Source: a virus
Taxonomy: Duplodnaviria; Heunggongvirae; Uroviricota; Caudoviricetes
Length of the DNA stretch: 64,000 nucleotides
Direction: 5' to 3' (one strand)
IMG/VR virus record: IMGVR_UViG_2879469214_000003
Coordinates: 1 to 64,000 of that record
Part shown: positions 10,281-54,360 of the stretch, in pieces
Numbering within the stretch: position 1 is the stretch's first letter
How the letters are laid out: the number at the start of each line of letters is the position of its first letter
Made by a program: the position numbers and the translations under genes
Notes under the pieces: model-generated
The model's database searches: none
What the model saw: only the letters and a program-made list of their open reading frames with translations
What the model was told of the DNA's origin: nothing

Positions 10281-10330
10281 ATTGTACCATCTAATATAAT
10301 GATTGTACAGTATTATTTTTGTGTATTTAA
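10281..10330 (-). promoter_or_regulatory. repeat motif (variant TTAAATACACAAAAATAATAC) plus sigmaA-like promoter TGTACA-17-TACAAT
   Basis: Motif abuts the -35. Reading direction is minus. Upstream of the actin-like gene. Confidence 0.5.
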
Positions 10331-10385
10331 AACTAAATACTCAATTTTTACCTATTGCCTTTCTTCAAGTAAAATTGATGTTTCA

Positions 10386-10877
10386 TCAGGATTTAGCCTT
10401 CAAAAAATGTTGATATCTCAAGGATAATTCAGTCAACCATTCATGATTGTCACAATTTTCGCTGCGTGTGTCCAAAGCAAGGTCAATCATTGAAGATAAT
10501 TGCTCAACAGTTAGATCAACATCATCAATTTCCACATCACAGTAAAAGTTGACAATCTCGTTGTACTTACTTGGGTTAGCTATACCGTTAGACTTGTTTT
10601 CTATGTATAGTTCTAAGTTCACTTTAGCTTCAGGATACTCTTTCTTAATCATGTTGACTGCCTCATGGTATGTAAACTTTCTCAGGTGATCTCCATCAAA
10701 CTGAAAATAGATAATGAAACTATTAAAATGAAGTCTTCTTAATGTGTAGTCGTATGATACTGTTTTTTGATCGAAGATGTATTCCATGTCCAATTTCTTA
10801 TCTTTAAAAGCTGGATAGAATACTCTCAAGTGTTTATCGAAGAGTTTAAACAAATTCTTATCGTTCAGTTTTATCAT
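10386..10877 (-). CDS. hypothetical protein
   Basis: 163 aa ORF with RBS GAAAGGGA-N7-ATG. Confidence 0.4.
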   Translation of the reverse strand: MIKLNDKNLFKLFDKHLRVFYPAFKDKKLDMEYIFDQKTVSYDYTLRRLHFNSFIIYFQFDGDHLRKFTYHEAVNMIKKEYPEAKVNLELYIENKSNGIANPSKYNEIVNFYCDVEIDDVDLTVEQLSSMIDLALDTRSENCDNHEWLTELSLRYQHFLKAKS

Positions 10878-11059
10878 ATGTATTTCCCTTTCTGTTAGTA
10901 GTGATCATTCTCGCTTTGGTAATACTCCAAGTCGTAATTCAATTGCCACTCTACAAGTTTTACTATGTATCTGTCATACTTCTCTTTCTCAATTAATCCC
11001 TCTTCATATTTACTGTTTAAGTAGTTCATATAATTTTGGATCTGAATAATGCATCACCT

Positions 11060-11617
11060 CTATTCTCGGTTTGATCGTAAATCTAGGACTTGTTCCTTCC
11101 TTGTCTTTAGCTCTTCTAAAATTAACTCTTCAGGAATCAAATTGCCGAATCCAACACTATTTTTGGTAAATGGACTGTCAATTCCTACATTGATTTGATT
11201 CACATAATTCGATGGTCTACTATGAATATGTCCATGAATCGAATAAGCATTTGGTGTTAATCCAATTTCAATCGGATAGTGGAAAAGGAATAGATGCTGC
11301 TTATTGATCTTTCTAACAATCATGTTTTCAACTTCTTCGAAGTGATGAGCCATTTTCTTTACTGCGTTAGCATTGTCATGGTTACCAACAGCTAAATGAA
11401 TTTTGCCATTTAGTCTTGGAATGATACTCTCCCATCTAGTGATTCCACCAAATACAAGGTCACCAAGATGATAAACCGTATCATTGCTGCTTACTGTGTT
11501 ATTCCATTGTTCAATTAGGTATTTGTTCATCTCTTCAGTTGTATTGAATGGTCTGTTCTCATGCTGAATGATATTATTATGTGAGAAGTGGCTGTCCGAT
11601 GTATACCAAACTGACAA
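11060..11617 (-). CDS. metallophosphoesterase (YfcE/MJ0936-type)
   Basis: 185 aa. GDLVFGG, GNHD, GHIH motifs. Confidence 0.7.
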   Translation of the reverse strand: MSVWYTSDSHFSHNNIIQHENRPFNTTEEMNKYLIEQWNNTVSSNDTVYHLGDLVFGGITRWESIIPRLNGKIHLAVGNHDNANAVKKMAHHFEEVENMIVRKINKQHLFLFHYPIEIGLTPNAYSIHGHIHSRPSNYVNQINVGIDSPFTKNSVGFGNLIPEELILEELKTRKEQVLDLRSNRE

Positions 11618-11618
11618 T

Positions 11619-12053
11619 TTACTTATCCTCCTTAACCTTTAAAGGCGTGTAACAATCTGAACAAATAATCCATGTACATGTATCTAAGCAATTTGAAAAC
11701 TGATACCACTTAGATGGCACAAAATACTCTTTAGTTGATATGAATTTTGGTGTATCTTCACAGTTCCGACAGTATAAAAAGTCGGTGTTACTGTTTAGTC
11801 TTGCTGATGGTTTATAGCCGTATATGCCTAAGTGCTTATTTACTTTTTTCATCTTTTCTCCGTTAGTACATATATAAATGTTTGATAAGGAATAATCACG
11901 ATGATTGCCCCAATCATGAACCACAACAAGTGACCCCAAGTAAATACCAGCTTGCCTTTTACCACACGTATAAATACAACCAGACTGAAGATTAAACATA
12001 GAGCCAACAAAGCATTGAAAATTATATTTACTATATGAACCTCTCCTTTTCAA
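11619..12053 (-). CDS. Cys-rich hypothetical protein (zinc ribbon)
   Basis: Several CxxC pairs. The real start may be an internal Met. Confidence 0.3.
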   Translation of the reverse strand: MKRRGSYSKYNFQCFVGSMFNLQSGCIYTCGKRQAGIYLGSLVVVHDWGNHRDYSLSNIYICTNGEKMKKVNKHLGIYGYKPSARLNSNTDFLYCRNCEDTPKFISTKEYFVPSKWYQFSNCLDTCTWIICSDCYTPLKVKEDK

Positions 12054-12080
12054 TTCAAATGCATCTTTTACTTAAACATC

Positions 12081-12452
12081 CTATGTATTATTTTTCTTCA
12101 AAATCCGAACCATTAAATCATTGGTAATCTTCAAATCTTCACTGTGTAGTGCATGAATTATATCTAATGCTCTCATCTGTTCAACTGACATTTTACTGTT
12201 TAAGTTAATTGGCTGCATAAACAATAGCTCATACGTAGTAACACCTAATGTATCCGCAATGTTTTCTAATTTACCCATGCGCGGTTCATTCCTACCACTT
12301 TCCCAATAGCCTATGGTAGCACCTGACACACCTAGCTTTTGACCCAACTCTTCCTTCGATAACTCCATTCTTTCACGGAACCTCTTCAAATTACGTGCAA
12401 AATTTAATTCACTCATGTTGAACCTCCTATTTGATTTTCTTAATAATAGCAA
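12081..12452 (-). CDS. XRE-family helix-turn-helix transcriptional regulator
   Basis: HTH LSKEELGQKLGVSGATIGYWESG. The start is probably the internal Met (MSELNF). Confidence 0.6.
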   Translation of the reverse strand: MLLLRKSNRRFNMSELNFARNLKRFRERMELSKEELGQKLGVSGATIGYWESGRNEPRMGKLENIADTLGVTTYELLFMQPINLNSKMSVEQMRALDIIHALHSEDLKITNDLMVRILKKNNT

Positions 12453-12506
12453 TCACTATTACTTTTGATCAAATATAAGTTTCATTTAAACTATGTATTC
12501 TATGTA

Positions 12507-13166
12507 TTAAGTGAATGCTGGTCTTAGTTTCTTTATAGCACACTTATATTGATAATGAGTCGCCTGTCTAGTTTGATTTATCCCTTCACCAATCTCAGTG
12601 ACTCCCATACCATCAAAAAAGAACTTCTTAGCAACGTATCTCTCTTTTTCATTAAGCTTCGTATCTAGTAATTCTTTTAATTGATTATTAAACTCATCTT
12701 CTTCCACCTGATTAAGTTTAGTGTGTTCATCATTGGCTAGAATTTCTGAAATTAATTTATCTGCACCATCGCTCGTTTTACCAATAGGCGTCTCAAGACT
12801 TACGGTTTGAAACGAATTGCGACACTTCATACGCTTGTGACGTTCAGCTTTGACAAATTCCATCCACACAACATTTCCAATATAGGTAGATAGTTTAGTA
12901 TCTTTACTTGTGTCATATGTATCAAAAGCTTTTACTAATCCTATTGATCCTATTCCAACTAAGTCATCCAAGTCGTCTTTGAAACCAAACTCCTTCCACT
13001 TGTGAGCAAGTTTAACTACAATGCGAATATTATTGTTGATTACTTGGTTTCTTAGTTCCTTATCATTTGTCTCTTTCGCGAGTTTGATCATTGCTTCATT
13101 ATCAAAACTTGGATCATAATGTCTCATCATATTATCAAAATTCATTTGTCTCACCTTTTTGTACAC
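12507..13166 (-). CDS. sigma-70 family sigma factor (phage-encoded)
   Basis: Region 2 (DLVGIGSIGLVKAFDTYD) and region 4 HTH (MGVTEIGEGINQTRQATHYQYKCAIKKLR). Confidence 0.7.
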   Translation of the reverse strand: MYKKVRQMNFDNMMRHYDPSFDNEAMIKLAKETNDKELRNQVINNNIRIVVKLAHKWKEFGFKDDLDDLVGIGSIGLVKAFDTYDTSKDTKLSTYIGNVVWMEFVKAERHKRMKCRNSFQTVSLETPIGKTSDGADKLISEILANDEHTKLNQVEEDEFNNQLKELLDTKLNEKERYVAKKFFFDGMGVTEIGEGINQTRQATHYQYKCAIKKLRPAFT

Positions 13167-13398
13167 TATGTTTGATGTACAATCCTTCTTCTGTAATTTC
13201 TAATAAGTTGATCTGCTTACCGTATGCACATGCCCCATCTATACCAATCTTGTCTCCTTTAGGATCGAACCAAATTTCAGCAGAACCGTGTAAATGAATT
13301 GCTGGAGTATGCCCAAAAATTACTTTCTTTTTTAGACTGGTGAAATTGTGATAGAATTGCTCTCTAATCCATATAAAATCAGACTCAGAAGTGTTTTT

Positions 13399-13886
13399 TC
13401 AGTTACTTAACATTGGATTGATTCCTGCATGAACGTATATATGTCTCTCGTCCTCATGACACAGCGACAATACATCAAGAAAATCAATGTGGTGCTGATA
13501 ATGTTTACGTATATACTCTTTTACTTCTATGTATTTATCCCAGTCGAATCCTTCTTCGAAATAATCTCCACCAATGTAGCCAATTAGTGTTGTGAACCCA
13601 CCATTATTAAGCCATTGAGCATCATAGAGCTCATCATCATTTTTTAGTGCTGCTACCATCATGTCATCGTGATTACCTTTTAACGCTACAACATCATGAT
13701 CAAACTTTAGCTTTATAATCTGTTCAATGACTTGCTTACTTTTCATGCCTCTATCTACATAATCTCCGAGTAATATTAATTGATCATTTGTTGAATCATA
13801 TTTGTTTTTATTGAGTATTAAATTAAATTCATCAAGGCATCCATGAATGTCGCTAACAACGAGTTTTCTGATGTTTTGAGCCTCAT
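13399..13886 (-). CDS. Ser/Thr phosphatase-type metallophosphoesterase (PrpE/ApaH-like) with apparent -1 frameshift in an A-run
   Basis: Downstream frame gives KLVVSDIHGC, GDYVDRG, GNHD. It has no ATG. The ATG at 13884-13886 (MRLK) is in another frame and joins if the run at about 13874-13877 had one more base. Confidence 0.5.
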
Positions 13887-13926
13887 TTCCATTGATTTAT
13901 TATATAAATTACATTAAAATTATCAT

Positions 13927-13942
13927 ATTGCAGGGGTGCAAT
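13927..13942. promoter_or_regulatory. palindromic operator-like site ATTGCA-N4-TGCAAT
   Basis: Perfect 6-bp inverted repeat in the divergent AT-rich region, between the sigma-factor operon start and the plus-strand membrane gene. Confidence 0.35.
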
Positions 13943-14096
13943 AGTCGAAGGTTTAATAGGGAGCAGTCATTACCTTAATTGGTGTGACTGCTTTTTTGAT
14001 GAAGCAAGTGTTTTATAAAATTATAAAAATTTTAACTTTATTATGAATCTGATTTCATAGTAGCTACGTATAGATTAATAAAAGGAGTGGTCATAA

Positions 14097-14819
14097 ATGG
14101 AAGAAAAGGTCGGATTGAATTTTTACTCTAATCTAAAAGAAATATTAGATTTTTATGATGAGGAGCTATCAAGCAAAAAACTAATTCCAACAACTAAATT
14201 GGATGCTTTGTACGTATGGACTGCTTTGGCTTTAATTGTAAGTGGGACAACACTCCTTTTTATCAGTCTAGGCAACTTTAAATCTCTTCTTTCAGTTCTC
14301 CTTTCAACTTTGGCAATTGTACTGCTTTTATCCGCTTTGGGTTTGATGCAACTTATAGTCAATTCAAGGGGTAAAACCGTGAAATTATACTTTGGTGATG
14401 GTGAAAAACAGCAGTACTTAACGCTTGAAAATAAAAGATCAAGTAAAAACGAAAATAATATTCTCTTTGCATATCGAACTGATAGAATCGCAAGTAAATT
14501 GAATGAAATGGGAATATATAAAGTCGAACACATTACAGCTATCGCTGAGCACTTAGAGAGCCACAGTCAAAACACTAAAAGTATAAAATGGCTTCCTATC
14601 GGCATTTTTGGATTGTTCTTAATTCCTCTGTGGACAGAATTTGTAGGCAAATACTTAAGCGGCACTTCTTCTGTTATTTTCTTAATCCTATTAGGGTCGG
14701 TACTTGCTACTGTTGTATACTTGCTGAATATTGCTTTCAGGATTATCCTATGGCCTGAAACTGATAAGCAGATAGAGATTGCTACCATCATGAAAATTTT
14801 ATTAACTTCTAGAGTTTAA
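14097..14819 (+). CDS. 4-TM membrane protein (plus-strand insertion, candidate superinfection-exclusion or Abi-type protein)
   Basis: 240 aa. Two hydrophobic hairpins (residues about 40-85 and 165-215). RBS AAAGGAGTG. Opposite strand to its neighbours. Own terminator. Confidence 0.55.
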   Translation: MEEKVGLNFYSNLKEILDFYDEELSSKKLIPTTKLDALYVWTALALIVSGTTLLFISLGNFKSLLSVLLSTLAIVLLLSALGLMQLIVNSRGKTVKLYFGDGEKQQYLTLENKRSSKNENNILFAYRTDRIASKLNEMGIYKVEHITAIAEHLESHSQNTKSIKWLPIGIFGLFLIPLWTEFVGKYLSGTSSVIFLILLGSVLATVVYLLNIAFRIILWPETDKQIEIATIMKILLTSRV

Positions 14820-14830
14820 TCAGATCCAAA

Positions 14831-14855
14831 GAGGGAGAGCCACTCCCTTTTTTTT
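14831..14855. terminator. rho-independent terminator between convergent genes
   Basis: GGGAG-agcca-CTCCC followed by T8. Confidence 0.6.
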
Positions 14856-14862
14856 GATCAAA

Positions 14863-15219
14863 CTAGACTTTCACAGACTTTTGTTTGTTAATCAGAGCCT
14901 CTATTTCTTTTAACTTTTCTAAGCTTAGCGATCCAACTTTCTCTCTCAGGCTGACCACTAGATCCCTGCGTTCATTTGCTCGATTAACTCTATCCCAGTA
15001 TTCATTGGGGTTAATAAATGCTTTGTAATGTCCCAATACCCCATTGTTATTGGTCAGAGTTCTCTTATCCAATCTAATGGGATGTTTATCTCCTTCTTGA
15101 GAAACGTATACACTTGATGTATTTACTTTTTGTACGATGTATTCTTTTAAATTTGTTTCTTTATATAGAAAGCCACTGATATTCACATAAAGCGTCTGAC
15201 CAACTTCAATATTTTTCAT
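14863..15219 (-). CDS. hypothetical protein
   Basis: 118 aa ORF. Confidence 0.4.
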   Translation of the reverse strand: MKNIEVGQTLYVNISGFLYKETNLKEYIVQKVNTSSVYVSQEGDKHPIRLDKRTLTNNNGVLGHYKAFINPNEYWDRVNRANERRDLVVSLREKVGSLSLEKLKEIEALINKQKSVKV

Positions 15220-15638
15220 TATTCAGCCTCCAATAGTTCGGGATTATCGTGAATGTTTCCAACAATTTCGCACTCATCCGATACATAAGCATAGTCATAA
15301 CTTAGTGGCTGATCTCCCAAATGCCACGCATATTCTCTATATTCGATCATCTCATTATGATATGTAGGATATGTATTCTCTGGATTTTCGTATAGATCGG
15401 GAACTTTAAAGATGTCTTTGTCATAGGCTGCAACACCATTTTTATCTTTTAGTCCTATGCATTTACTAACAGTAGACGCCTCTACCAAATACCAATGCGT
15501 AGTGTTAAAGTAATCATCATGCCAATCGACAATTTCACCAACAATCACGTCATCTCCAATCAAGTATCCGTAAACCCATTCACCTGTTTCAATGTGTTTT
15601 CCACGATGCTTATTGCTCATATTTATCCACTCCTTCAT
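15219..15638 (-). CDS. hypothetical protein
   Basis: 139 aa ORF. Confidence 0.4.
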   Translation of the reverse strand: MKEWINMSNKHRGKHIETGEWVYGYLIGDDVIVGEIVDWHDDYFNTTHWYLVEASTVSKCIGLKDKNGVAAYDKDIFKVPDLYENPENTYPTYHNEMIEYREYAWHLGDQPLSYDYAYVSDECEIVGNIHDNPELLEAE

Positions 15639-15960: not shown

Positions 15961-16004
15961 TCTTCCTCCTCTATTATTCTGTGTAAAATTAGATTTTCTT
16001 GGAC

Positions 16005-17424: not shown

Positions 17425-17426
17425 TA

Positions 17427-17971: not shown

Positions 17972-18010
17972 CTCCTAAAAGAAAAAAGTACAGGTTCTCT
18001 TTGACCTGTA
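17972..18010 (-). terminator. rho-independent terminator (minus-strand direction) downstream of DHFR
   Basis: TACAGGT-tctctttg-ACCTGTA, followed in the minus orientation by a T-rich run (CTTTTTTCTTTT). Confidence 0.55.
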
Positions 18011-18013
18011 CTC

Positions 18014-18064
18014 AGTTTATCATCTATAATATTGTTTGTCTAGTGTTATTTTAGTGTAATTATT
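18014..18064 (-). promoter_or_regulatory. repeat motif (TAATTACACTAAAATAACAC) plus promoter TAGACA-17-TAAACT
   Basis: Motif overlaps the DHFR stop codon. The predicted TSS falls inside the 5' arm of the downstream terminator hairpin. Confidence 0.45.
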
Positions 18065-25319: not shown

Positions 25320-25370
25320 AATATAATCCATAAATCATTAATTGTAAAGTGTTATTTTAGTGTAATTAAG
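25320..25370 (-). promoter_or_regulatory. repeat motif (CTTAATTACACTAAAATAACAC) plus promoter TTTACA-17-TATATT
   Basis: Motif abuts the -35. About 30 nt upstream of the ATG of 25067..25291. Confidence 0.5.
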
Positions 25371-35603: not shown

Positions 35604-35884
35604 GATTTATCAATCTCCTTTTGTATGAAATTCAAATTTCACTTAGATTTCCTCTAATTCCATCATCGCTAGAATGTAAGCATCGTACTGATCTTCTGAA
35701 AACTCCCATCCAAATATAGCTATACTCCTATTGAATTCATCCAAGCAATCTTTTTTTATCTTGGATTCTAAGCGATCGCTGATTATTTTTAACAATTGAT
35801 TTAGATCGCTATGTTTACTCATTTAACCTTGCTCCTTTTCTTAATGAAATCCAACATTCATTCTAATTATAAAATACTTTAATG

Positions 35885-36142
35885 TTATTTTTGTGTATTA
35901 GATAGTTTGTAAAATTCTTTCTTACAACAGATCCAGAATGAATGATTTTCTGCTCCATTATCGTCTTCTATGTATGTTTCCTCATCCACCGCTGCGCAGT
36001 CATCATATCGCTTCATGAGCAGCTCGTAATATCCCCCGACAGTGACTGGTACATTTCTCAACTTGTCCACAATTTTAACATGGGTGGCTTCCTCCTCATT
36101 TGCTGTTTGCAATAAATCAGAATCGCTTATCTCAACATACAT
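35885..36142 (-). CDS. hypothetical protein
   Basis: 85 aa ORF downstream of a motif-bearing promoter. Confidence 0.35.
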   Translation of the reverse strand: MYVEISDSDLLQTANEEEATHVKIVDKLRNVPVTVGGYYELLMKRYDDCAAVDEETYIEDDNGAENHSFWICCKKEFYKLSNTQK

Positions 36143-36170: not shown

Positions 36171-36221
36171 TATTATATTCTATATTTACATCAAGTCAAG
36201 TATTATTTTAGTGTAATTAAA
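36171..36221 (-). promoter_or_regulatory. repeat motif (TTTAATTACACTAAAATAATAC) plus consensus promoter TTGACT-16-TATAAT
   Basis: Best example of the family. Motif directly abuts the -35. Confidence 0.6.
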
Positions 36222-40951: not shown

Positions 40952-42166
40952 TTAAATCCATACAGCTTTAGGTTTGAGACTATGCTTAACATTTCGGTCT
41001 AATTCCCGTTCTGTCCACTTACTCCATTCTTCTTGTGGTACTTCCCGTACAACATAGCACCCACTAGATAAAACTTTGTCTCCTTGTTTTTCTGTGAAAT
41101 TTTCATATGGAATGACCACTTCAAGCAGCACACCTTTATCATAGTAATGCGATTCTCTAATTTCTTCTTTTTCATTAAAATAAATATGTTCGTTTTTAGG
41201 TTTTACAAGTGTTCCGAACACATACTCAAATTTGCTATCGTGATGGCTAAAGTATTTGTCATCACGTCTCTCAACAAACTTATAAAACTTTTGTGAGTCT
41301 ATGTATTGTTTTGCATCAATCTCAATCTTATTTTTAGGTTCTTCGGCAATCTCTCTTAAAACATTTTTCTTAGTGATCCGGTATGTATTATCTTTAATCT
41401 TCACAACTCTAACTGGTTCTTTCACAATCACATCTAGGATCTCTTCCACACTGTCGTACTTAATTTCTTTGGGCTTCTCAAAGTAATCCTCACTCAGGGC
41501 AATATTCGCTATCTTGTCAATGATTTTACTTAGACTAAATGACTCTCCTTCTTCTAGTTCAATCATCTTGTCGTAATTGATACCATACATTCCACCAAGA
41601 TGCTGCTTCAATTCTTCTGCATTTGTTATATTGAGCTCCATGCAGCTAAGTGCAATCCGTAAAAACTCAGGCTTGGAAATGTTGTAACCTTTATCTTTAT
41701 ACTTTTGAACTCTCAACAGTGAAACAATTGGAAAATCGGTTTGCTTGTTAAACTTCAAGATTCGTTGTGCATTGTGTTTCAGAAAGTCTTCATGTAGAAC
41801 AAACTGCTCTGTTTCAAAATCGAAGGCTCCCATACATACTGTGTAGTCAAATGTATCAAAGATATCTTCTGCTTTCTCAAAATACTTGAAGTGGATCATT
41901 TGAATTTCCTTGTCATCTACTCTAACCAATAATGCTTTAGATGTAAGAGCATTTACCCAATCATCACTATTGTCATAGATTTCTTCAACTAATTCTGATA
42001 GTGACTCTTCATCTCTAAAGTAGAGATCAATATCGTTTACTGGATTATTGCTAAACAAACTTGTGATTGTTCCTCCTGCTATGTATGCTCTATGCTCCTT
42101 CAGAGTATTCACCAAACTTGTTCCTAAGTAATTGTACAATTTGTTCTTTTCAAAAATATATTCCAT
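40952..42166 (-). CDS. nucleotidyltransferase-fold protein (pol-beta-type GG-x12-DID motif), function unknown
   Basis: 404 aa. AYIAGGTITSLFSNNPVNDIDLYF plus a downstream acidic residue. RBS AAAGGAGG. Confidence 0.45.
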   Translation of the reverse strand: MEYIFEKNKLYNYLGTSLVNTLKEHRAYIAGGTITSLFSNNPVNDIDLYFRDEESLSELVEEIYDNSDDWVNALTSKALLVRVDDKEIQMIHFKYFEKAEDIFDTFDYTVCMGAFDFETEQFVLHEDFLKHNAQRILKFNKQTDFPIVSLLRVQKYKDKGYNISKPEFLRIALSCMELNITNAEELKQHLGGMYGINYDKMIELEEGESFSLSKIIDKIANIALSEDYFEKPKEIKYDSVEEILDVIVKEPVRVVKIKDNTYRITKKNVLREIAEEPKNKIEIDAKQYIDSQKFYKFVERRDDKYFSHHDSKFEYVFGTLVKPKNEHIYFNEKEEIRESHYYDKGVLLEVVIPYENFTEKQGDKVLSSGCYVVREVPQEEWSKWTERELDRNVKHSLKPKAVWI

Positions 42167-42190: not shown

Positions 42191-42244
42191 ATGTTATCAT
42201 ACATATATTCATTCTTCAAGTATTATTTTTGTGTAATTGTAATG
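42191..42244 (-). promoter_or_regulatory. repeat motif variant (AATTACACAAAAATAATAC) plus promoter TTGAAG-17-TAACAT
   Basis: Overlaps the last codons of the HNH gene. Drives 40952..42166. Confidence 0.45.
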
Positions 42245-46109: not shown

Positions 46110-46200
46110 ATGATCAACTCCCTATATATTTTATCTCTTATGTAGTTCGACAATCCTATTTAATCTTCCTGCCGTTGTTTTCTCCTGTTTGTATTACTAT

Positions 46201-46223
46201 TGTATTATTTTAGTGTAATTAAG
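46201..46223 (-). repeat. repeat motif copy (CTTAATTACACTAAAATAATAC) with no obvious adjacent promoter
   Basis: Exact core copy of the repeat family. The downstream -35/-10 is poor. Confidence 0.4.
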
Positions 46224-46237
46224 TCAATCATTAAATT

Positions 46238-46609
46238 TTACTTTAACTCTGTTATATCAACTTTTAAGTAATCACTGAGAATAAGTGTTATATCTACTTT
46301 GACTTTGCTCCACAACAAGACCATTCTTTGTGTATACCCTCTAATCGAATATTCAACTTTTAAACTTTCAGAGGATTTCGATGTTTCAATGATTCTAATA
46401 TCATTCTCTCTTAGGTAATTCTTCAACTTATATGCCTCAGCAGTCACTTTACTCTGTATATTATCAAGGTGATTAATGTAAACAGTATACATTTTCATTT
46501 CTGAATTAGCTATTTGCTTTTTATCATGCTCAATTGAACTTAATAGATACGGCAGTTCAACATATCTTTTAACAGCTGCTAACTCTTCAGGTGTCTGTTT
46601 CAAATTCAT
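46238..46609 (-). CDS. hypothetical protein
   Basis: 123 aa ORF. Confidence 0.35.
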   Translation of the reverse strand: MNLKQTPEELAAVKRYVELPYLLSSIEHDKKQIANSEMKMYTVYINHLDNIQSKVTAEAYKLKNYLRENDIRIIETSKSSESLKVEYSIRGYTQRMVLLWSKVKVDITLILSDYLKVDITELK

Positions 46610-46952
46610 CTCCTCCTTCGTTCAATTTAACAGATACCAAATCATCAAAATTTAGCAACTCATAACCTGTATCAGTCTCCAGCTTTATTTTCTTTCCAGA
46701 GTTACTAACTGATGTAACAATCCCTTTGACAGTCTTATTCCCAAATTCATTAAACAATTCAATATCTGCCTCTATAGTGTAACTCAATGACATACGTAAA
46801 TTAAGTGAAATGATTTCAATCTCATCTTCATGTAAGAATGGTTTTGTGGAAACAGTATCTCTTGAACGATGCTCAATGATTCTTTCTTTATGTTGTGGTA
46901 GCATCATACGACTTGATTCCCATAGTCCATTTGCTTCAAGTTTTTTACTCAT
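46587..46952 (-). CDS. yolD: YolD-like protein (partner of the Y-family polymerase)
   Basis: 121 aa immediately downstream of and overlapping uvrX. Has the MMLPQHKE-type motif. Confidence 0.5.
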   Translation of the reverse strand: MSKKLEANGLWESSRMMLPQHKERIIEHRSRDTVSTKPFLHEDEIEIISLNLRMSLSYTIEADIELFNEFGNKTVKGIVTSVSNSGKKIKLETDTGYELLNFDDLVSVKLNEGGDEFETDT

Positions 46953-48292
46953 TTATAATGACCCCCAATTTTATTTGATCTGTCTATAGCTTGACCAGCA
47001 GAAGTTATGGAGCTTGCCCGTAAAATTGCAATATCTCCAAAGCGATCCTTAATATCATCCATTACTTTGTCCACCGCCCTCTTCTGTTCCTGATCATCGA
47101 ATAATGACAGCTGATAAGTCTCAGCATTAGAGAGATTGGACAATGATATCCCAACTCGTCTTACAGGTTGACCGTCCCAATGTTGCCTAAATATCTGCTT
47201 GGCTATCTTGCACACATCTATAGTAATGTTGGTGGGATCTTGAAGTTTAACCTGTCTGCTAAATCCAGTTGGATGATCAAAGTCAGCACCGGATAGGCTC
47301 ATAGTGACTACACTACCCATTAATCCCTTTTTTCGAGCACGTCTGCAAACTTCAGTACAGATGTCTTGAATTACAACGTCAATTTCCCATTGTTCAGTAT
47401 AGTCCCTAGGAAGTGTCATACCGTTACCAATATCCTTTTGAACACTATGAGTATTTATTGTTACCGGAGAGTCATCTAAGCCATTAGCTACTCTCCAAAT
47501 AACCTCACCATTAACTCCCCATTTACTTCTCAATTTAGACAATGGTGTCTCAGCAAGCTGTTTTATAGTTCGAATACCCATTTTCCACAGGTGCTTTTCC
47601 ATTCTAGATCCAATTCCCCACATATCGCGAATTGGTTTATCACCTATATGTTCGTGTAGCTCTTCTTTTCTAAGAAAGAATACTCCACCATCAATTTTCT
47701 TCGCTATCATATCACAGCAGAGTTTACTCATCACTTTGTTGGTTGAAATACCTGCTCTTGCGTAGACTCCCGTTTCATTGTAAATCTTGTCTTGAATCTG
47801 CTTTGCTAAATCAATTGGGTCATTACCAAATAAGTGAAGAGAGCCAGTCACATCGCAAAATAACTCATCGATACTATAGGGCTCAACCAAGTCGGTGAAC
47901 TCCTCTATAATGGACATAATTTGTGTAGAAACTTCAATGTATTCCTGCATATGTGGTCTTACAATAATCAACTCAGGACACTTTTGAAGTGACTGCCATA
48001 ATGGTTCAGCGGTTGACACGCCTTTTGCCTTAGCTAGAGGACATGCAGCAAGTATAATTCCTGAACGTCTTGCTGGATCTCCTGCAACTGCCAATGGTTT
48101 GTTTTTGTACTGTGGCATTTTAGCCTTTTCAACACTGGCGTAAAACGATTGCATGTCAATTAGCATAATTGTCCGCTCTTTCTTCGCCATTATTATCACT
48201 CCCATAATCAAATAAGAACGTTTGTTTGTATTAGTATTATACACCGAACAGACGTTCTTTATGCAACAGGAAATTTTTGTAGTTCGTATCAT
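46949..48292 (-). CDS. uvrX: Y-family translesion DNA polymerase (UvrX/DinB-like)
   Basis: 447 aa. IMLIDMQSFYASVE catalytic motif, palm/fingers and little-finger layout. Confidence 0.85.
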   Translation of the reverse strand: MIRTTKISCCIKNVCSVYNTNTNKRSYLIMGVIIMAKKERTIMLIDMQSFYASVEKAKMPQYKNKPLAVAGDPARRSGIILAACPLAKAKGVSTAEPLWQSLQKCPELIIVRPHMQEYIEVSTQIMSIIEEFTDLVEPYSIDELFCDVTGSLHLFGNDPIDLAKQIQDKIYNETGVYARAGISTNKVMSKLCCDMIAKKIDGGVFFLRKEELHEHIGDKPIRDMWGIGSRMEKHLWKMGIRTIKQLAETPLSKLRSKWGVNGEVIWRVANGLDDSPVTINTHSVQKDIGNGMTLPRDYTEQWEIDVVIQDICTEVCRRARKKGLMGSVVTMSLSGADFDHPTGFSRQVKLQDPTNITIDVCKIAKQIFRQHWDGQPVRRVGISLSNLSNAETYQLSLFDDQEQKRAVDKVMDDIKDRFGDIAILRASSITSAGQAIDRSNKIGGHYK

Positions 48293-48846: not shown

Positions 48847-48871
48847 GGTGGATTTCTCCACCCTTTCTTCC
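48846..48871 (+). terminator. rho-independent terminator
   Basis: GGGTGGA-tttc-TCCACCC followed by TTTCTTCC. Confidence 0.45.
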
Positions 48872-48930
48872 TGTAAAACTTGTCTTTCATTAAAATAATG
48901 AATACATATAACAACTTGTCTATGGTATAA

Positions 48931-49425
48931 TTGGTTTTTCAATGCTTCATTATGGAAGGGGTGTTTTCAATGAATCAGCACAATAAAATTATTGACTCTG
49001 ATGAAATTAAAGTTCTTTTTGATGGGAAGTCCTTTATCAAAACTGTTACTTTTGAAGATGACAACATATCAATATTGTATTATGAAACTTATGAGGATAT
49101 GCTGCAAAACTCAGAAAAACTATTGATTACTGAAGAAGAATTCAATATTTTCTTTACTCCTACGACAATTGAAAAAATAATGATTAAAAACACTTCCGAC
49201 ATACTTTTTAAATTTCCATTTGTAAAGAATATTTCAATTACTCTTAAAACTAACAATTATGTTTACTCTGCAAAACTAAATAAGACATTGATATATGAAT
49301 TTACTGGAGTAGATATTGGAAAATTCAATGACTCCAACGAATACAAAACTAATTTTGCTTCAATTCACTTAGATAAAAAAGAAATCAGAAATAAGTTATT
49401 TCAACAAATAGTTAATATTGATTAA
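48931..49425 (+). CDS. hypothetical cytoplasmic protein (second gene of the plus-strand cassette)
   Basis: 164 aa ORF. Same strand as 48349..48846. Confidence 0.4.
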   Translation: MVFQCFIMEGVFSMNQHNKIIDSDEIKVLFDGKSFIKTVTFEDDNISILYYETYEDMLQNSEKLLITEEEFNIFFTPTTIEKIMIKNTSDILFKFPFVKNISITLKTNNYVYSAKLNKTLIYEFTGVDIGKFNDSNEYKTNFASIHLDKKEIRNKLFQQIVNID

Positions 49426-49426
49426 G

Positions 49427-49452
49427 GATGGCGCTTGTCGCCGTCTTTTTTT
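49427..49452 (+). terminator. rho-independent terminator
   Basis: GATGGCG-cttgt-CGCCGTC followed by T7. Confidence 0.6.
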
Positions 49453-50065
49453 ATTGACAAAAGTCCTTAATTATCTGATCAATATCCATCTCCATATCCC
49501 ACCATATCTTGCCTTCCTTAACTTCTGGGTCTTTATGAAGATTCATTTCATTGTCTAATCTAAAAGTATTCTGACCGTACACCTTTCCATAACTCATTCC
49601 ATATCTCGTACCGCCTTCAATTACTCCTTCATCTTTCACTGTAACGATTTTTGGACACAGTGCGGCTAGTAGCCGATCACGTTCAATCAAACGCTTGGAA
49701 AACTGACTCAATCCTCTCTCATTACTTTCAACTGCCTTTGTGGTGTACGGATGAACAATACATCCATTTTTCTTAATTTCCTCTGAGAGACTTCTGTTTT
49801 TCCATGGATATATCTCTTGCTTAGTAGGTGTGTTAACAATTGCAATCGTCTTTCCTTTTCCAGCTATGGCTCCTTTATGAGCGGCTGCATCTATGCCCTC
49901 AGCCAATCCTGAAACAACTATGTATCCGTGTCTTGCTAAATTACAGGCGAAAGTGTGCGCCGCCTTTAGTTCGTCTACACTTGCTTTTCTTGAGCCAATC
50001 ACGGCAACCCATCTGTCTCTTTGAGTTAGATCCATATTCAAACCAGTTACTTTAATTATGACCAC
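49451..50065 (-). CDS. DprA/Smf-like Rossmann (SLOG) protein
   Basis: 204 aa. VIGSRKAS...ARHGYIVVSGLAEGIDAAAHKGAIA...GKTIAIV. Confidence 0.55.
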   Translation of the reverse strand: MVIIKVTGLNMDLTQRDRWVAVIGSRKASVDELKAAHTFACNLARHGYIVVSGLAEGIDAAAHKGAIAGKGKTIAIVNTPTKQEIYPWKNRSLSEEIKKNGCIVHPYTTKAVESNERGLSQFSKRLIERDRLLAALCPKIVTVKDEGVIEGGTRYGMSYGKVYGQNTFRLDNEMNLHKDPEVKEGKIWWDMEMDIDQIIKDFCQ

Positions 50066-50092
50066 TCCTCATGAATTGTTCATTTTATCGAA

Positions 50093-50449
50093 TTAGTCGA
50101 TATACTCATAGTGCATGATTACCACTCGATAAATGGGGATTCCTAACAATCGCTTTACAATCACATCTTCTCCAGTATAGACTTTTTTTCTGTTGATTTT
50201 TCTAATCACATAATACTCTCCGTGATCCAAGTCTAAGTAATCAGTCATCACAAAATTCCTCAGTGACTGCTTTACATAAACAGGTTCGTGATAGGGGAAT
50301 ATATTTCTTTCTCGGTATGTTGTTTTTAAATTGATTATCTTTGGAGTCGTGATTATATATTCACCTTCTACGGCTGTCCTATATTCAAGTTCATATTTTT
50401 TCTGTCCAAGTATGAACTGTCCTTTTTCATTGATGTAACCTGCTCCCAT
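50093..50449 (-). CDS. hypothetical protein
   Basis: 118 aa ORF. Confidence 0.35.
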   Translation of the reverse strand: MGAGYINEKGQFILGQKKYELEYRTAVEGEYIITTPKIINLKTTYRERNIFPYHEPVYVKQSLRNFVMTDYLDLDHGEYYVIRKINRKKVYTGEDVIVKRLLGIPIYRVVIMHYEYID

Positions 50450-50474
50450 GGCGTTTCTCCTTAAAATATGTATT

Positions 50475-50879
50475 TTAAAGACTTTTCAAACCCTTTCCAC
50501 AAACTGGACAGTAGTTTATTTTCACTCCATAAAGTGAATGAGGTGCACTTCCTCCAACGATACTGTCTTCTAAGTAATTTACACTGTTTATAAATACGCT
50601 ATAATCACTTAGCTGAGCCTTCATTAAAGGCTCTCTGTCTGTTGAACTTTCACCAGCACAATACTTACAATTTTCTATGTGCTCATCTTTATCTTTAGAC
50701 TGCTTGTCTAATTCATCTGCCACCAGATTAAATTCGTCTGCAATACTTCTTAGCTCCTGAGTGCACCATGTATTATTTGTTAAACTAATGCTGCCGACAA
50801 GTCGAGGCGTAAATCCGATTTGCTTAACTATCTTTCCTTTTATAAATCTACCGTTAACCTTAATCTCAGTACTAAACAT
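50475..50879 (-). CDS. zinc-ribbon hypothetical protein
   Basis: 134 aa. CKYCAG...YCPVCG. Confidence 0.35.
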   Translation of the reverse strand: MFSTEIKVNGRFIKGKIVKQIGFTPRLVGSISLTNNTWCTQELRSIADEFNLVADELDKQSKDKDEHIENCKYCAGESSTDREPLMKAQLSDYSVFINSVNYLEDSIVGGSAPHSLYGVKINYCPVCGKGLKSL

Positions 50880-51459
50880 TCACAGCTTCCTCTCTAGTCA
50901 CCCACTCAAGATAATTGGTATGATTTCGATCCTTCTTGTGTTTGAAGCCCAACTTTCCCAAAACATAATCATAGTAAACTTTGTAATTATAGTTATCTGT
51001 TCTGATATCTTTAGTTAAGTAAGGTGACATATCTGAAGGATGCTTATAGTAATGAACCCTTAAATAATATCTTTCCCCATAACTATCTCCCCCAAGTACT
51101 CTGACACACAATTCGGCATATTTATTTTCTGCTTGAGGAATCCAGACATAGTGATGTGAATGAAAGCTTCCATCTGGATCATTTCTTAATTTCTCAACAT
51201 GATAAAGACATCCATCTCTAACTTCATATGTATATCGCTCATTGTCTGGAGCATAGTTAAAACTCTTTGGAATTTCGTATTGAACACCATTAATATCTGC
51301 TGTATTTAGTTTGCTATTTACTCGACGCTCTTCTTCGTCAATCTTATTCTTTAACTTGTACATCTCTTCGCCAATGCCTCTTTTTGCAGTCTTACTATTC
51401 ACATTCCCGTAATCTATCTTTGCTTTTTCATACTCATTCTTCATTTCTAAGAGTTGCAT
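50872..51459 (-). CDS. hypothetical protein
   Basis: 195 aa ORF. Confidence 0.4.
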   Translation of the reverse strand: MQLLEMKNEYEKAKIDYGNVNSKTAKRGIGEEMYKLKNKIDEEERRVNSKLNTADINGVQYEIPKSFNYAPDNERYTYEVRDGCLYHVEKLRNDPDGSFHSHHYVWIPQAENKYAELCVRVLGGDSYGERYYLRVHYYKHPSDMSPYLTKDIRTDNYNYKVYYDYVLGKLGFKHKKDRNHTNYLEWVTREEAVNV

Positions 51460-51504
51460 TCTCTACCTCCTCATTGTTTGTGAAACACGCATTTTATTTG
51501 AACT

Positions 51505-51533
51505 TTGACTCAATGATGTTCCTATGGTAAAAT
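51505..51533 (+). promoter_or_regulatory. strong sigmaA-type promoter TTGACT-17-TGgTAAAAT (extended -10) on the plus strand
   Basis: Near-consensus hexamers with an extended -10. No plus-strand protein gene downstream. Confidence 0.55.
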
Positions 51534-51539
51534 ATCTCT

Positions 51540-51740
51540 GTCGGTACGAAACCCTAACCCAATATTAGGTATTTGAGTCGTTCTCCAATTTTTTAAATGG
51601 CTTAAATTGTAGTTCCGTCTGTGCAACAAATTTAAGTAGCTTGTATTTAGCAAGATACTCCTATGGTAAGGAAAAGAACTGTAGTGTATGGTGCTACCCA
51701 CACTTTACACACATCCTTTGGATGACAGTTCTTTTTCTGT
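51540..51740 (+). ncRNA. candidate ~200-nt non-coding RNA (orphan promoter to structured terminator)
   Basis: Promoter at 51505-51533. Outer stem AAGAACTGT (51674-51682) pairs with ACAGTTCTT (51725-51733) and encloses two small hairpins (AGTGT..ACACT, CATCCtttGGATG). Followed by TTTTT. Confidence 0.3.
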
Positions 51741-51792
51741 TTTCTACTCAAATTAATCTCAGTAAAATAGACCTTTCATTTGCTGTTGGCTC

Positions 51793-52053
51793 TCAAACTT
51801 TATCTGGTCGATTTCCTACAAAGCAATCTCTAATGCACTTATGTATTTTAATCTCATTGTCCAACTCATTATCATCCCACTGATTTTGATATATACTTTT
51901 CCAGCCCACAAACCATTTACATCTCTCGAAAATCTTTAACTTGTAAACAGTTTTATAATAAGTCACTCCACCAGCTCTTAGTGTATCTACACGTTGTTCT
52001 TTTACTTCCAATCTGTATTTTTTCTCATCTTCATTCCAATACTTTTTATACAT
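51793..52053 (-). CDS. hypothetical protein
   Basis: 86 aa ORF. Confidence 0.35.
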   Translation of the reverse strand: MYKKYWNEDEKKYRLEVKEQRVDTLRAGGVTYYKTVYKLKIFERCKWFVGWKSIYQNQWDDNELDNEIKIHKCIRDCFVGNRPDKV

Positions 52054-52477
52054 CTGCCCTCTTCTCCTTTAACACTGACATGTCATATCCAGATTCAATG
52101 AATCGAATTGTCTTACTTCTGTTGCAGTCGTTTCCTAAGTATGTATATATCTCATCCATATCTTCAAATGTGAAACTTGTCCCTAAATACTCATTAATAA
52201 TTGCCCTGAATCTCTTTTGCCAATACAAGCTAACTCCCTTACAGCTTGGTCTTGATAACCAAGCCAATACTTTTCTCTTTATGTCAAAGTCAGACTCTAC
52301 ATCGCTCAGTAAGAAATAAATATTATTTTTGGGTTCAATTATTAATTCAAACTTAGAGTTAATGAAGCAATTCGGTGAGTGGCGTTCTGCAATTTTCATA
52401 AACTTTTGAATTTCAATTAGATTCACTTTTCTCCTCCTGACCATACATAACAAATGTTCCTCTTGGAGCAATTTCAA
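52046..52477 (-). CDS. hypothetical protein
   Basis: 143 aa ORF. Confidence 0.35.
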   Translation of the reverse strand: MKLLQEEHLLCMVRRRKVNLIEIQKFMKIAERHSPNCFINSKFELIIEPKNNIYFLLSDVESDFDIKRKVLAWLSRPSCKGVSLYWQKRFRAIINEYLGTSFTFEDMDEIYTYLGNDCNRSKTIRFIESGYDMSVLKEKRADV

Positions 52478-52640
52478 TCTGGCTAATAAAGTCCCTCTTC
52501 TCTAAATACTCAATATCAAGTTTACTATAGTAAAAAACCAATCCATCTATAACGGGCGACACATATGCTACAATTCCCAATTTATTAAGCACTCGTTCAC
52601 ATTTCTCGCAATCCTCAGATAGTCTAATTATGTACTCCAT
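52413..52640 (-). CDS. hypothetical protein
   Basis: 75 aa ORF. Confidence 0.3.
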   Translation of the reverse strand: MEYIIRLSEDCEKCERVLNKLGIVAYVSPVIDGLVFYYSKLDIEYLEKRDFISQIEIAPRGTFVMYGQEEKSESN

Positions 52641-52815
52641 CTACCCTGCTCCTTTCTTTAAGCGTCACCATATATTCTTCGTATATTGGTTTAAAAGCAG
52701 CTTCTTCCTGTTTCCATAAAGTCTCTCCAACATCAATTCCATATCCAGCGTTACAACCTTGAGCGAAAAAGTAATAGAGCATGTTTTTCAACTCATCTCT
52801 TTTGATGTATGGCAT
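52624..52815 (-). CDS. hypothetical protein
   Basis: 63 aa ORF. Confidence 0.3.
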   Translation of the reverse strand: MPYIKRDELKNMLYYFFAQGCNAGYGIDVGETLWKQEEAAFKPIYEEYMVTLKERSRVDGVHN

Positions 52816-52818
52816 AGA

Positions 52819-53007
52819 TTACGGCTCCCATCTATACAGTTCATAATCATTATCTACCAATTCAAAATAATCGGAACTATGATCGCCTGATAGTTTCTCG
52901 TTAAGAATATCGACTATCAAGTCTCCATAATAGCTACTTACATTCTCGCAAACTAATTTATCGTTCACTAACTCTCTACCAAAGTTATCTTTACAAATGA
53001 TCTTCAT
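52819..53007 (-). CDS. hypothetical protein
   Basis: 62 aa ORF. Confidence 0.3.
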   Translation of the reverse strand: MKIICKDNFGRELVNDKLVCENVSSYYGDLIVDILNEKLSGDHSSDYFELVDNDYELYRWEP

Positions 53008-53228
53008 TTTAATTCCTCCAGAACTTCTTCAATATTTTCGATGTTGTCCCATACCTCATCATAGTAATAGTTGACATTCCCATCTACACTATCAACCGAT
53101 ATTTTGCAACAATGCTTCCCTTCTTCATCACAGTAGTTGTTCCAGCGCACATTTACTTCTATGATGTCTGTGTGTTTTTGAAAATATGTATTCATATATG
53201 TGGGAAGTCTATTTATCTGAACAATCAT
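53004..53228 (-). CDS. hypothetical protein
   Basis: 74 aa ORF. Confidence 0.3.
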   Translation of the reverse strand: MIVQINRLPTYMNTYFQKHTDIIEVNVRWNNYCDEEGKHCCKISVDSVDGNVNYYYDEVWDNIENIEEVLEELK

Positions 53229-53259
53229 AATTCTTTCTCCTCCTTATGAAACGTGCCTT

Positions 53260-53574
53260 TTACTTAGTAGTCTTACTTTTCTTGAATGGTTCAATAAATA
53301 ACCAGCGAAAACCTGTGTATAAGATTTTCAAGAGGTTCCATGAGGCAAAGACTGCCAACCCAATAAGAGCTAATAATATAATCCACATCACAGTCGCTCT
53401 TAGTTGATCTGGCATGACCCAGTTATCTTGTAGCCACCATATCCCATTCATCAATAACAAAACTAATCCCCATAATGCTGATATGAGCCCCGCGAACAAT
53501 AATGTCTTTTTCATTCTTTTAAAAAACTCTCTCAACTTATACGAATCCTCCTCAACTTCATGGTCTCTATGCAT
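53260..53574 (-). CDS. membrane protein (2-3 TM)
   Basis: 104 aa with hydrophobic helices. Confidence 0.4.
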   Translation of the reverse strand: MHRDHEVEEDSYKLREFFKRMKKTLLFAGLISALWGLVLLLMNGIWWLQDNWVMPDQLRATVMWIILLALIGLAVFASWNLLKILYTGFRWLFIEPFKKSKTTK

Positions 53575-53807
53575 CTTATCAAGATTAGATAAGATAGCTA
53601 GTTGCCTAAGATGTCCTCTAAACTAATTTCTCGCTTTCCACTTCCAATAACTATGTAAAATCCGGGCTTGTCTGATCTCTCTTCTAATGTAGCTCCATGT
53701 GACTTTGCCAGTTGAATAATCTCCTCATTAGATAACTCAATCTCATCTTTCAACTTGTGGCCTCCCATTCTAATTTTGATAAAACAGATCTTTTAACTGC
53801 ATTTTGA

Positions 53808-54038
53808 CTACTTACTAAGAGCCACGGATGTTCGTTTTAGAATGTCATTCCATTCATTCAGTATGTATTCTACCCAGTATTCTGGAGGGTAGTGTCCAAC
53901 AAACTCTTCGTCTTCTTTTAGCATTTTCATAACAGATGATTTATGTACTAGTGAAACGACAAACTCTTTTTCTAAAGGAAGATTCTCAAGCATGTACTCA
54001 ATTATTAAGTCTTGATAACCTCGCACTTCTTCTCTCAA
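53808..54038 (-). CDS. hypothetical protein
   Basis: 76 aa ORF. Confidence 0.3.
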   Translation of the reverse strand: MREEVRGYQDLIIEYMLENLPLEKEFVVSLVHKSSVMKMLKEDEEFVGHYPPEYWVEYILNEWNDILKRTSVALSK

Positions 54039-54256
54039 TGTGAACCTCCTCTATCGTTGTCTCTCTCATCGTTTAGTTCTTTGATCTCAGGGAAGATAGC
54101 CACAAACAAATCAATAACGTCAATTTTTTTACTCTTTCTATTCTGGGTTAAATAAAATCCGGGTGTTTTTGAATTTTCAGTTACTTTGATTCCTATTTCT
54201 TTAGCTATTCGTTTCATTTTTTCAATATCGATTTCATTATGATCATTTTTCTTCAA
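54035..54256 (-). CDS. hypothetical protein
   Basis: 73 aa ORF. Confidence 0.3.
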   Translation of the reverse strand: MKKNDHNEIDIEKMKRIAKEIGIKVTENSKTPGFYLTQNRKSKKIDVIDLFVAIFPEIKELNDERDNDRGGSH

Positions 54257-54310
54257 CTATGTACCACGTCCCCTCATAAGAAAAACGGCGATATCTTTCC
54301 CGTTAAAGGA

Positions 54311-54360
54311 ATTATATCACCGTTTTATATGTATGTACAGTTTTATTTTAGTGTAATTAA
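54311..54360 (-). promoter_or_regulatory. repeat motif (TTAATTACACTAAAATAAAAC) plus promoter TGTACA-17-TATAAT
   Basis: Motif overlaps the stop of 54357..54869 and abuts the -35. Confidence 0.55.

Follow-up and report, generated by a model that had tools for sequence, protein, structure and literature searches.

We analyzed a 64,000-nucleotide (nt) stretch of viral DNA, hereafter the window, which corresponds to positions 2,659,494-2,723,493 of contig RPHH01000001.1 of Paenibacillus xylanexedens (GCA_003833245.1), and we focused on a 21-bp sequence, the box, that recurs at its promoters. The window represents one end, the early region, of a large SPbeta-like prophage, and nearly all of its genes lie on the minus strand. 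They code for a serine integrase, a DnaE-like polymerase, ribonucleotide reductase, thymidylate synthase, dihydrofolate reductase (DHFR), a RecJ-like exonuclease, a DnaB-like helicase, a ligase, a Gad2-family protein, a Y-family polymerase, a phage sigma factor, and an XRE protein, and the homologs of SPbeta-type proteins include YorI, YorJ, YorK, YorL, YotM, LigB, and YorH (Pfam Phage_SPbeta_YorH). An additional 40.8 kb of the same prophage was read (loci L005, L254, L250, and L247; L numbers are the locus labels of this analysis), giving a composite of 104.8 kb together with the window. Further along the prophage lie homologs of YonG, terminase, YonJ, YonK, YonN, a YonO-type RNA polymerase, YonV, and a YopP-like recombinase, with E values of 3.5e-222 for YonO, 4.8e-142 for YonV, and 5.9e-34 for YopP. 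A near-identity DNA search of the window against phage records returned no match, and an Rfam scan of the window gave no family match.

The pattern TTAATTACACWAAAATAANAC was searched in the window with up to 3 mismatches, using dinucleotide-preserving shuffles (n = 100) as background. Seven matches to TTAATTACACWAAAATAAYAC were found, all on the minus strand and each at 0 to 2 mismatches from the consensus, whereas 0.10 were expected by chance and none of the 100 shuffles gave seven. A preliminary description of this DNA, made from its letters alone, had named seven copies on this strand; all of them are present, 1 to 4 nt from where they had been placed, and their frequency exceeds the expectation from base composition, a point on which that description had made its proposal depend. 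The seven are the strong copies of a larger set, since weaker ones occur at 3490, 7807, and 35882 and many more elsewhere in the prophage. The conserved block is a continuous 21 bp, and the sequence on either side is unrelated among the copies. Conservation ends sharply at its edges, and the adjoining −35, spacer, and −10 vary from copy to copy. The features examined were its 21 conserved base pairs, its asymmetry, its TAAAATAAT tract, and its strict orientation. Dyad symmetry was looked for in the window motif and is absent, the best self-complementarity being 10/20, and this, together with the strict orientation, fits a monomeric, asymmetric read-out. A direct repeat of 11-bp period (ATTACAC / ATAAYAC) is weak and was given no weight.

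The position of the box relative to promoters was then scored. A promoter-like site, defined by a score of at least 8/12, starts at a given exact offset at 1.1% (0.011) of positions in this DNA, and such a site starts exactly at the box end in 6/7 copies (binomial P = 1.5e-11). The spacers of these six promoters are 17 bp in five cases and 16 bp in one, four of the six carry an extended −10 (TGn), and the −35 hexamers match the consensus at 4 to 5 of 6 positions next to good −10 elements. The six −35/−10 pairs quoted in the preliminary description, with their 16- to 17-bp spacers, are correct as read in the sequence. Its statement that the motif ends at a −35 in six cases is borne out, but the seventh copy, at 46202, does not precede a promoter and lies inside the 17-bp spacer of TTGACT/TACAAT. 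Only two of the seven copies (18043 and 54340) bear out its further statement that a TTAA frequently also serves to stop the gene upstream. As a negative control, we examined seven occurrences of the 21-mer in public metagenomes, none of which is a relative, and a promoter followed the box in none of them (0/7). The individual boxes, promoters, and neighboring features are listed in Table 1.

Table 1. Boxes, predicted promoters, and accompanying features in the window and in the adjoining prophage sequence
Feature	Position	Strand	Sequence or elements	Remarks
Box (variant)	10310..10330	−	TTAAATACACAAAAATAATAC	Ends at the −35 that serves the actin-like (ALP_N) segregation gene
Predicted sigma-A-like promoter	10281..10309	−	TGTACA-17-TACAAT, TGn	
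Actin-like (ALP_N) segregation gene	9244-10290	−		Downstream of the box promoter at 10310
Box	18043..18063	−	ATAATTACACTAAAATAACAC	TAA serves as stop codon of the DHFR gene upstream
Predicted promoter	18014..18042	−	TAGACA-17-TAAACT, TGn	Conserved hairpin and T-run directly after
Hairpin with T-run	17986-18013	−	GAGTACAGGTC...ACCTGTACTTTTTT	Perfect 10-bp stem; starts right after the −10 of the 18043 promoter
Box	25349..25369	−	TTAATTACACTAAAATAACAC	Precedes the operon that runs into the ribonucleotide reductase genes
Predicted promoter	25320..25348	−	TTTACA-17-TATATT	
Box (consensus)	36200..36220	−	TTAATTACACTAAAATAATAC	
Predicted promoter	36172..36199	−	TTGACT-16-TATAAT	
Box	42220..42240	−	ACAATTACACAAAAATAATAC	Within the 3' end of the upstream open reading frame; precedes the Gad2-family gene
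Predicted promoter	42191..42219	−	TTGAAG-17-TAACAT, TGn	Same promoter in relatives L141 and L015
Gad2-family protein gene (PF26128)	40952-42166	−		Directly under the box promoter at 42220
Box	46202..46222	−	TTAATTACACTAAAATAATAC	Within the promoter spacer
Predicted promoter	46199..46227	−	TTGACT-17-TACAAT	Near-consensus; encloses the box
Box	54340..54360	−	TTAATTACACTAAAATAAAAC	Its TAA is the stop codon of a Sipho_Gp157-family gene
Predicted promoter	54311..54339	−	TGTACA-17-TATAAT, TGn	
Weaker box-like copy	3490..3510	−	TCAAATAGACAAAAATAATAT	Directly before the ribosome-binding site of the serine integrase gene; no promoter at offset 0
Weaker box-like copy	35882..35902	−	TCTAATACACAAAAATAACAT	No promoter at offset 0
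Weak box-like copy	7807..7827	−	CTAATTAGACTAATATAATAT	Upstream of the DnaE-like gene; may be chance
Phage sigma factor gene and adjacent XRE helix-turn-helix protein gene	12081-13145	−		Sigma factor: phrog_351, weak Sigma70_r2 match; near the distal end of a box-controlled operon
Y-family polymerase, YolD, YhjD gene cluster	46238-48190			
LexA-like box	48245-48258		CGAACAGACGTTCT	Upstream of the Y-family polymerase, YolD, YhjD gene cluster
AgrB gene and AgrD-like peptide gene	L254 388-1049 (window-scale about 72.8-73.4 kb)		MIKMNVMKLTMTAIGFLFTAIAYAGVNTASWTLIHSEPVPEELK (peptide)	Also in L252, L327, L329, L340, and L341
123-aa gene region	L254 about 1560-2140 (window-scale about 71.7-72.3 kb)		CGAACACTAGTTCT (LexA-like box)	LexA-like box directly after TATAAT, upstream of the gene
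Leader of about 245 nt	L254 2230-2482 (alignment A2 columns 115-361)			Upstream of a gene of about 380 aa before AAA_24

When the census was extended to the 104.8-kb composite, 26 matches to the position weight matrix (PWM) of the box were obtained, some of them weak and without a promoter, and at 15 of the 26 a promoter-like site starts exactly at the box end (P = 4.6e-23 versus the 1.1% background). Outside the window, copies lie near window-scale positions 71.7, 82.2, 85.2, 87.9, 89.7, 93.4, 94.4, 96.8, and 98.9 kb. Boxes are oriented with local transcription without exception, also where it flips at the YonO-like operon. At the junction of the early and late regions, the box points to the YonP/YonO-like late operon and at the same time overlaps the −35 region of the divergent gene for the YopP-like recombinase (P0022).

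In the SPbeta phages, elements of this kind are read by SroF, also known as MrpR or YopR. The protein binds as a monomer whose integrase-like fold encloses the DNA and recognizes 24 of 26 bp; its box in phi3T, CAGTAATTTTATTTTTATTCTTAATG, is 26 bp long and asymmetric and contains two A-tracts, and the SroF family holds multiple specific SroF types (bioRxiv 10.1101/2025.11.27.690993). In SPbeta, MrpR binds the SPbeta repeated element (SPBRE; Lazarevic 1999, as cited in PMC10516654) at about ten promoters and represses PaimR and PyosX (Kohm et al. 2023, PMC10516654). For both phages the binder has been established by chromatin affinity purification sequencing (ChAP-seq), electrophoretic mobility shift assay (EMSA), and crystal structure (PMC10516654; bioRxiv 10.1101/2025.11.27.690993).

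In our scan of phi3T, every box pointed in the direction of the early genes, and at six or more promoters the box ended 2 to 3 bp before a −35, as exemplified by TTTAGAGTAAAAATAAAATTAC ta TTGACG-17-TAAGAT before the yorE homolog. The phi3T box and the window box thus resemble each other in being long, asymmetric, A-tract-rich, repeated at many early promoters, and co-oriented with transcription, in ending at the −35 (window) or 2 to 3 bp from it (phi3T), and in their 3' halves (...AAAATAA(T/A)TAC). They differ in the 5' half, which reads AAGAATA in phi3T versus ATTACAC in the window, in the 2-bp gap to the −35 that phi3T has and the window lacks, and in the host, Bacillus versus Paenibacillus, and the phi3T SroF is only 28 to 32% identical to the SroF proteins of the Paenibacillus relatives described below. 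Since the architecture of the motif is that of the phi3T box, whose binder is a known repressor, the comparison favors repression.

The likeness to SPBRE is of a looser kind. Read at the ten MrpR-bound promoters listed in PMC10516654, SPBRE is AAATACAAAWAATATGTATA, with the inverted repeat ATACA..TGTAT, and it lies mostly in the spacer between TAGACA and TATAAT, although it is upstream of the −35 at aimR and yonX and downstream of the −10 at yopV and yopM. SPBRE and the window motif are alike in being repeats scattered over an SPbeta-type prophage, in the promoter regions of its early and lysogeny-control genes, with copies at the yonP/yonO promoter and at operons of the replication module. 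Unlike SPBRE, with its inverted repeat and variable position, the window motif has no dyad and keeps a fixed register upstream of the −35. It does not match the SPBRE of SPbeta and is not palindromic, which qualifies the earlier supposition of an SPBRE-like operator in a distinct sequence version.

To compare homologous promoters, the flanking genes of each window promoter were matched by tblastn in IMG/VR prophage contigs and Paenibacillus genomes. The homologous promoters of the relatives carry lineage-specific boxes. The type found in the window, type A, recurs in L015 and in L141/L013, where the Gad2-family protein shares 94% identity with that of the window. Type B, TTAAAACACAAAGATAATAC, extends up to the −35 of three homologous promoters and lies in the spacer at the homolog of the 46202 promoter. 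Type C, TTTAAGAATAAAAATA, is the core of the phi3T box and stands at offset 0 or +4 from the −35; this phi3T core, TTAAGAATAAAAATA, thus occurs in the type C relatives at promoters homologous to those of the window. Type D, ATAWACAAAWATAAT, overlaps the spacer and the −10, as in SPbeta. The box-in-spacer layout of the 46202 promoter is likewise conserved with lineage-specific boxes in L142, L143-L145, L149, L150, and L166. The exchange is most clearly delimited at one promoter located between a conserved terminator and a conserved leader of about 245 nt, where only the segment of box and core promoter differs between prophages, being type A here, type B in L327, and type C in L252 and L329. 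The leader itself is more than 90% conserved among four prophages and could be a structured RNA or a small open reading frame.

An SroF/MrpR-family protein is encoded by every relative examined. These proteins are 72 to 84% identical within type C and 98% identical within type B, with about 51% identity between types B and C, whereas type D proteins are 59 to 94% identical to one another and at most 40% identical to those of other types. One Bacillus contig encodes a protein identical to YopR, and L340 and L341 have two more SroF types with two more boxes. In contrast to this divergence, the AAA_24 protein encoded by an adjacent gene is 91 to 96% identical to that of the window prophage in type B and C relatives. 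The SroF type tracks the box type in at least eight relatives, and at least six box/repressor specificities are found on one conserved backbone; this co-variation is seen in the relatives, the type A repressor sequence not being among those compared. A box and a repressor that change together on a conserved backbone are what an operator-repressor pair predicts, and the pattern agrees with the multiple specific SroF types reported in the preprint.

A similar arrangement is familiar from the lambdoid immunity regions, in which pairs of cI and operator form heteroimmunity types, the repressor is a dimeric helix-turn-helix (HTH) protein, and the operators are clustered beside the repressor gene. 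There as here, the specificities of repressor and operator are exchanged together on a conserved backbone, and several immunity types exist among close relatives. The difference is that in the present system the operators are dispersed at at least 15 promoters over about 90 kb and the repressor family has a monomeric integrase fold.

The position of the repressor gene is conserved among the syntenic relatives. All five syntenic relatives (5/5) encode DndB and MrpR_N_CB/MrpR_C_cat proteins between the same flanking genes, in the order Myb-like gene (opposite strand), PemK toxin, DndB-domain protein (YopQ/SroE-like), MrpR_N_CB/MrpR_C_cat protein, membrane protein of about 214 amino acids (aa), AgrB, and a peptide of about 44 aa, onwards to AAA_24. 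In the window prophage both flanks were read, and the interval of 3,527 nt between them falls outside the 104.8 kb; its equivalent in L327 measures 3,496 nt. From this synteny and the size of the interval, we infer that the type A SroF gene lies there. A cluster look-up for a protein identifier in the interval returned singleton clusters only.

Taken together, these results make it likely that the 21-bp element is the operator box of the SroF/MrpR-type master repressor of this prophage. The proposal builds on the copy number, orientation, and register of the box, on the SPbeta-type backbone, on the same architecture at the phi3T box, and on the co-variation of box and SroF type in the relatives. 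The prophage would encode its own type-specific SroF in the 3,527-nt interval, and this protein would bind the box and thereby repress. The preliminary description had postulated that one regulator of the phage controls all these promoters by way of an SPBRE-like operator, a view supported by the backbone and by the phi3T architecture and strengthened by the tracking of types and by the MrpR-family gene of all five syntenic relatives.

By analogy with its characterized homologs, the repressor would have an integrase fold, bind as a monomer, and clamp around a long asymmetric site rich in A-tracts. In the lysogen, one repressor molecule would occupy each box at about −56 to −36, against or slightly into the −35 hexamer, and would keep RNA polymerase, with its sigma region 4 and its alpha C-terminal domains, from engaging roughly 15 promoters. 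These would drive the early, replication, and anti-defense operons as well as the operon of the YonO-type late RNA polymerase. At 46202, a box in the spacer would block the core promoter directly. Once the repressor is lost or inactivated, all these promoters would be freed at once.

Several observations weigh against this proposal. SroF/MrpR homologs were sought in the window (blastp, phmmer, PHROGs, and Pfam) and in the 104.8 kb read, and none was found; nor was a type A box found together with a readable SroF gene, the five AAA_24-anchored neighborhoods all having other box types. When the window motif was searched in SPbeta with up to 5 mismatches, only two chance matches were obtained, with a loose likeness in the A-rich core. 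A site centered near −46 in a fixed register occupies the textbook position of an activator, and the −35 hexamers of the box promoters are moderate. Finally, the prophage encodes a second integrase-fold protein, the YopP/SroD-like P0022, which has a box overlapping its promoter and diverges between box types. With regard to SPbeta, we reasoned that a sequence match to SPBRE is a mark of specificity type and not a family criterion, because phi3T, an accepted member, fails it too.

The absence of SroF from the 104.8 kb read also bears on an alternative that we regard as unlikely, namely that the box is an operator read by another protein, either P0022 or a different DNA-binding protein of the prophage, such as the XRE protein (12081-12416), a 346-aa HTH/coiled-coil protein encoded outside the window, or a phrog_2657 regulator (60344-61105). 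P0022 has an intact catalytic motif set, its gene stands at the early/late junction, and a box overlaps the −35 region of its promoter, but a box at the promoter of the repressor's own operon is also expected if SroF is the reader. The homologs of P0022 diverge between box types (61 to 66% identity), and a type A box is present in the promoter of a 47%-identical homolog in L015, an element otherwise unrelated to the window; yet the protein whose type tracks the box type across the relatives is also SroF, its gene occupies the interval position in 5/5 syntenic relatives, and it is SroF/MrpR that binds the box in SPbeta and phi3T. P0022 might also bind the boxes in addition to SroF. As for the local XRE and sigma proteins, which the preliminary description had put forward as possible binders, we found no support for them: their genes are placed well within an operon under box control, not where lysogeny-maintenance genes would be expected, and nothing links them to the box.

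It is quite unlikely that the box is instead a positive element, a phage activator site or a lineage-specific UP-like module at −56 to −36 that recruits RNA polymerase to early or middle promoters. If it were, the same protein would shut off the promoter at 46202 that has the box in its spacer, producing an early-to-middle switch. The strict orientation and the fixed register, directly before the −35 at 15 promoters, would suit such a role, but the phi3T box has the same fixed register and its binder, SroF, is a repressor. Imperfect −35 hexamers would be expected of activated promoters, but these −35 and −10 elements are reasonable, with TGn, and the promoters are not obviously activator-dependent. 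The box is A/T-rich at the position of an UP element; however, it is replaced wholesale between close Paenibacillus prophages within one host genus, which argues against recognition by the host alpha subunit. One copy lies inside a near-consensus promoter (46202), which speaks for this reading; against it, the equivalent element in distant relatives and in SPbeta overlaps the spacer and the −10, the position of a repressor.

Beyond its proposed role as an operator for SroF, the box may have a second function, which we consider distinctly improbable. The boxes would also be sites at which a recombinase-type activity or gene conversion homogenizes or replaces the whole operator set on a change of immunity type, or they would act as UP-like elements after removal of the repressor. 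The idea was raised because relatives with near-identical flanks carry different boxes at at least 15 dispersed promoters, each set matched to its own repressor, and because P0022, an SroD-like protein whose catalytic motif set reads as intact, has a box in its promoter. If true, it would be a mechanism not described for SPbeta phages.

It is very improbable that the box lacks a dedicated binding protein and that its copies merely reflect base composition or the duplication of promoter cassettes (repeats by descent), for although the DNA is 65% A+T with an A-rich minus strand and weak PWM matches occur without promoters, seven copies stand against 0.10 expected, conservation stops at the box edges while the −35, spacer, and −10 differ between copies, boxes are swapped as units between lineages with conserved flanks, and chance occurrences elsewhere have no promoters.

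The neighborhood of the predicted repressor gene has further features. Near the predicted SroF position, a LexA-like box directly follows a TATAAT upstream of a gene for a 123-aa protein. This protein is hypervariable and tracks the box type, being 63% identical to that of the type B relative and 29 to 40% identical to those of type C relatives. It is a candidate for an SOS-controlled antirepressor analogous to Sar, though a comparison of the 123-aa protein with phi3T Sar revealed no sequence similarity. Directly downstream of the MrpR-family gene in all relatives, after the membrane protein of about 214 aa, lie an AgrB gene and a gene for an AgrD-like peptide of 40 to 44 aa. SPbeta phages have arbitrium in their lysogeny-control region, and a comparison with prophage sequence L250 detected neither AimR nor AimP homologs. 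The AgrB and AgrD-like genes may form an Agr-type peptide signaling cassette near the repressor genes, at the place that arbitrium has in SPbeta phages.

Two of the box promoters adjoin other conserved features. The hairpin behind the 18043 promoter has a conserved counterpart in four relatives, at the homologous site. It is probably the terminator of the upstream operon, and transcripts from the box promoter start inside its 5' arm and so would escape termination. The leader of the ALP_N gene, about 80 nt long, contains GTACAATCAT twice together with several TGTACA palindromes and might be a centromere-like or regulatory site.

The box and promoter segment at 42220 recurs in near-identical form in L015 (IMGVR_UViG_2879469214_000005), a second mobile element of P. 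xylanexedens that has no proteins in common with the window and carries two type A boxes, and there it precedes different genes. One of the two boxes, in the region 10179-11250 of that element, is in the promoter of the YopP/SroD-like tyrosine recombinase mentioned above, which is followed by a large helicase. The L015 element could use the repressor of the resident prophage. In the window the 42220 promoter serves the Gad2-family gene, and we take this family (PF26128) to be an anti-Gabija counter-defense family.

Degenerate variants of the box that end in ...AAYAT adjoin ribosome-binding sites and not promoters, at 3490-3510 and at composite positions 69574, 82535, and 94192, and some phi3T boxes likewise stand before a ribosome-binding site (TGGAGG follows). 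These variants may be roadblock or translational-control sites, or they may simply be A-rich upstream regions. Apart from the box, a LexA-like site lies upstream of the gene cluster for the Y-family polymerase, YolD, and YhjD.

We also considered the motif as a promoter of the phage sigma factor encoded at 12507-13145. This possibility was rejected: the motif is one continuous 21-mer and not two blocks 16 to 18 bp apart, and the properly spaced elements downstream of it are variable and sigma-A-like. Having both this sigma factor and a YonO-type RNA polymerase, the prophage may possess two late-transcription devices.

The SroF/MrpR repressor-and-box system would thus extend from the SPbeta phages of Bacillus to large prophages of Paenibacillus. 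What is new is the box sequence and the host genus; the operator kind, that of SPBRE and the SroF box, is known, and no new kind of system is revealed. The new sequence can be used for annotating early promoters and the repressor regulon in Paenibacillus prophages. Of interest to specialists are the strict register at the −35 and the concerted exchange of operators and repressor type. The register, which abuts the −35 and is common to phi3T, could throw light on the way in which transcription is blocked by a monomeric repressor with an integrase fold. The concerted exchange of at least 15 operators over about 90 kb with the repressor type could help explain how immunity type changes in phages whose operators are scattered.

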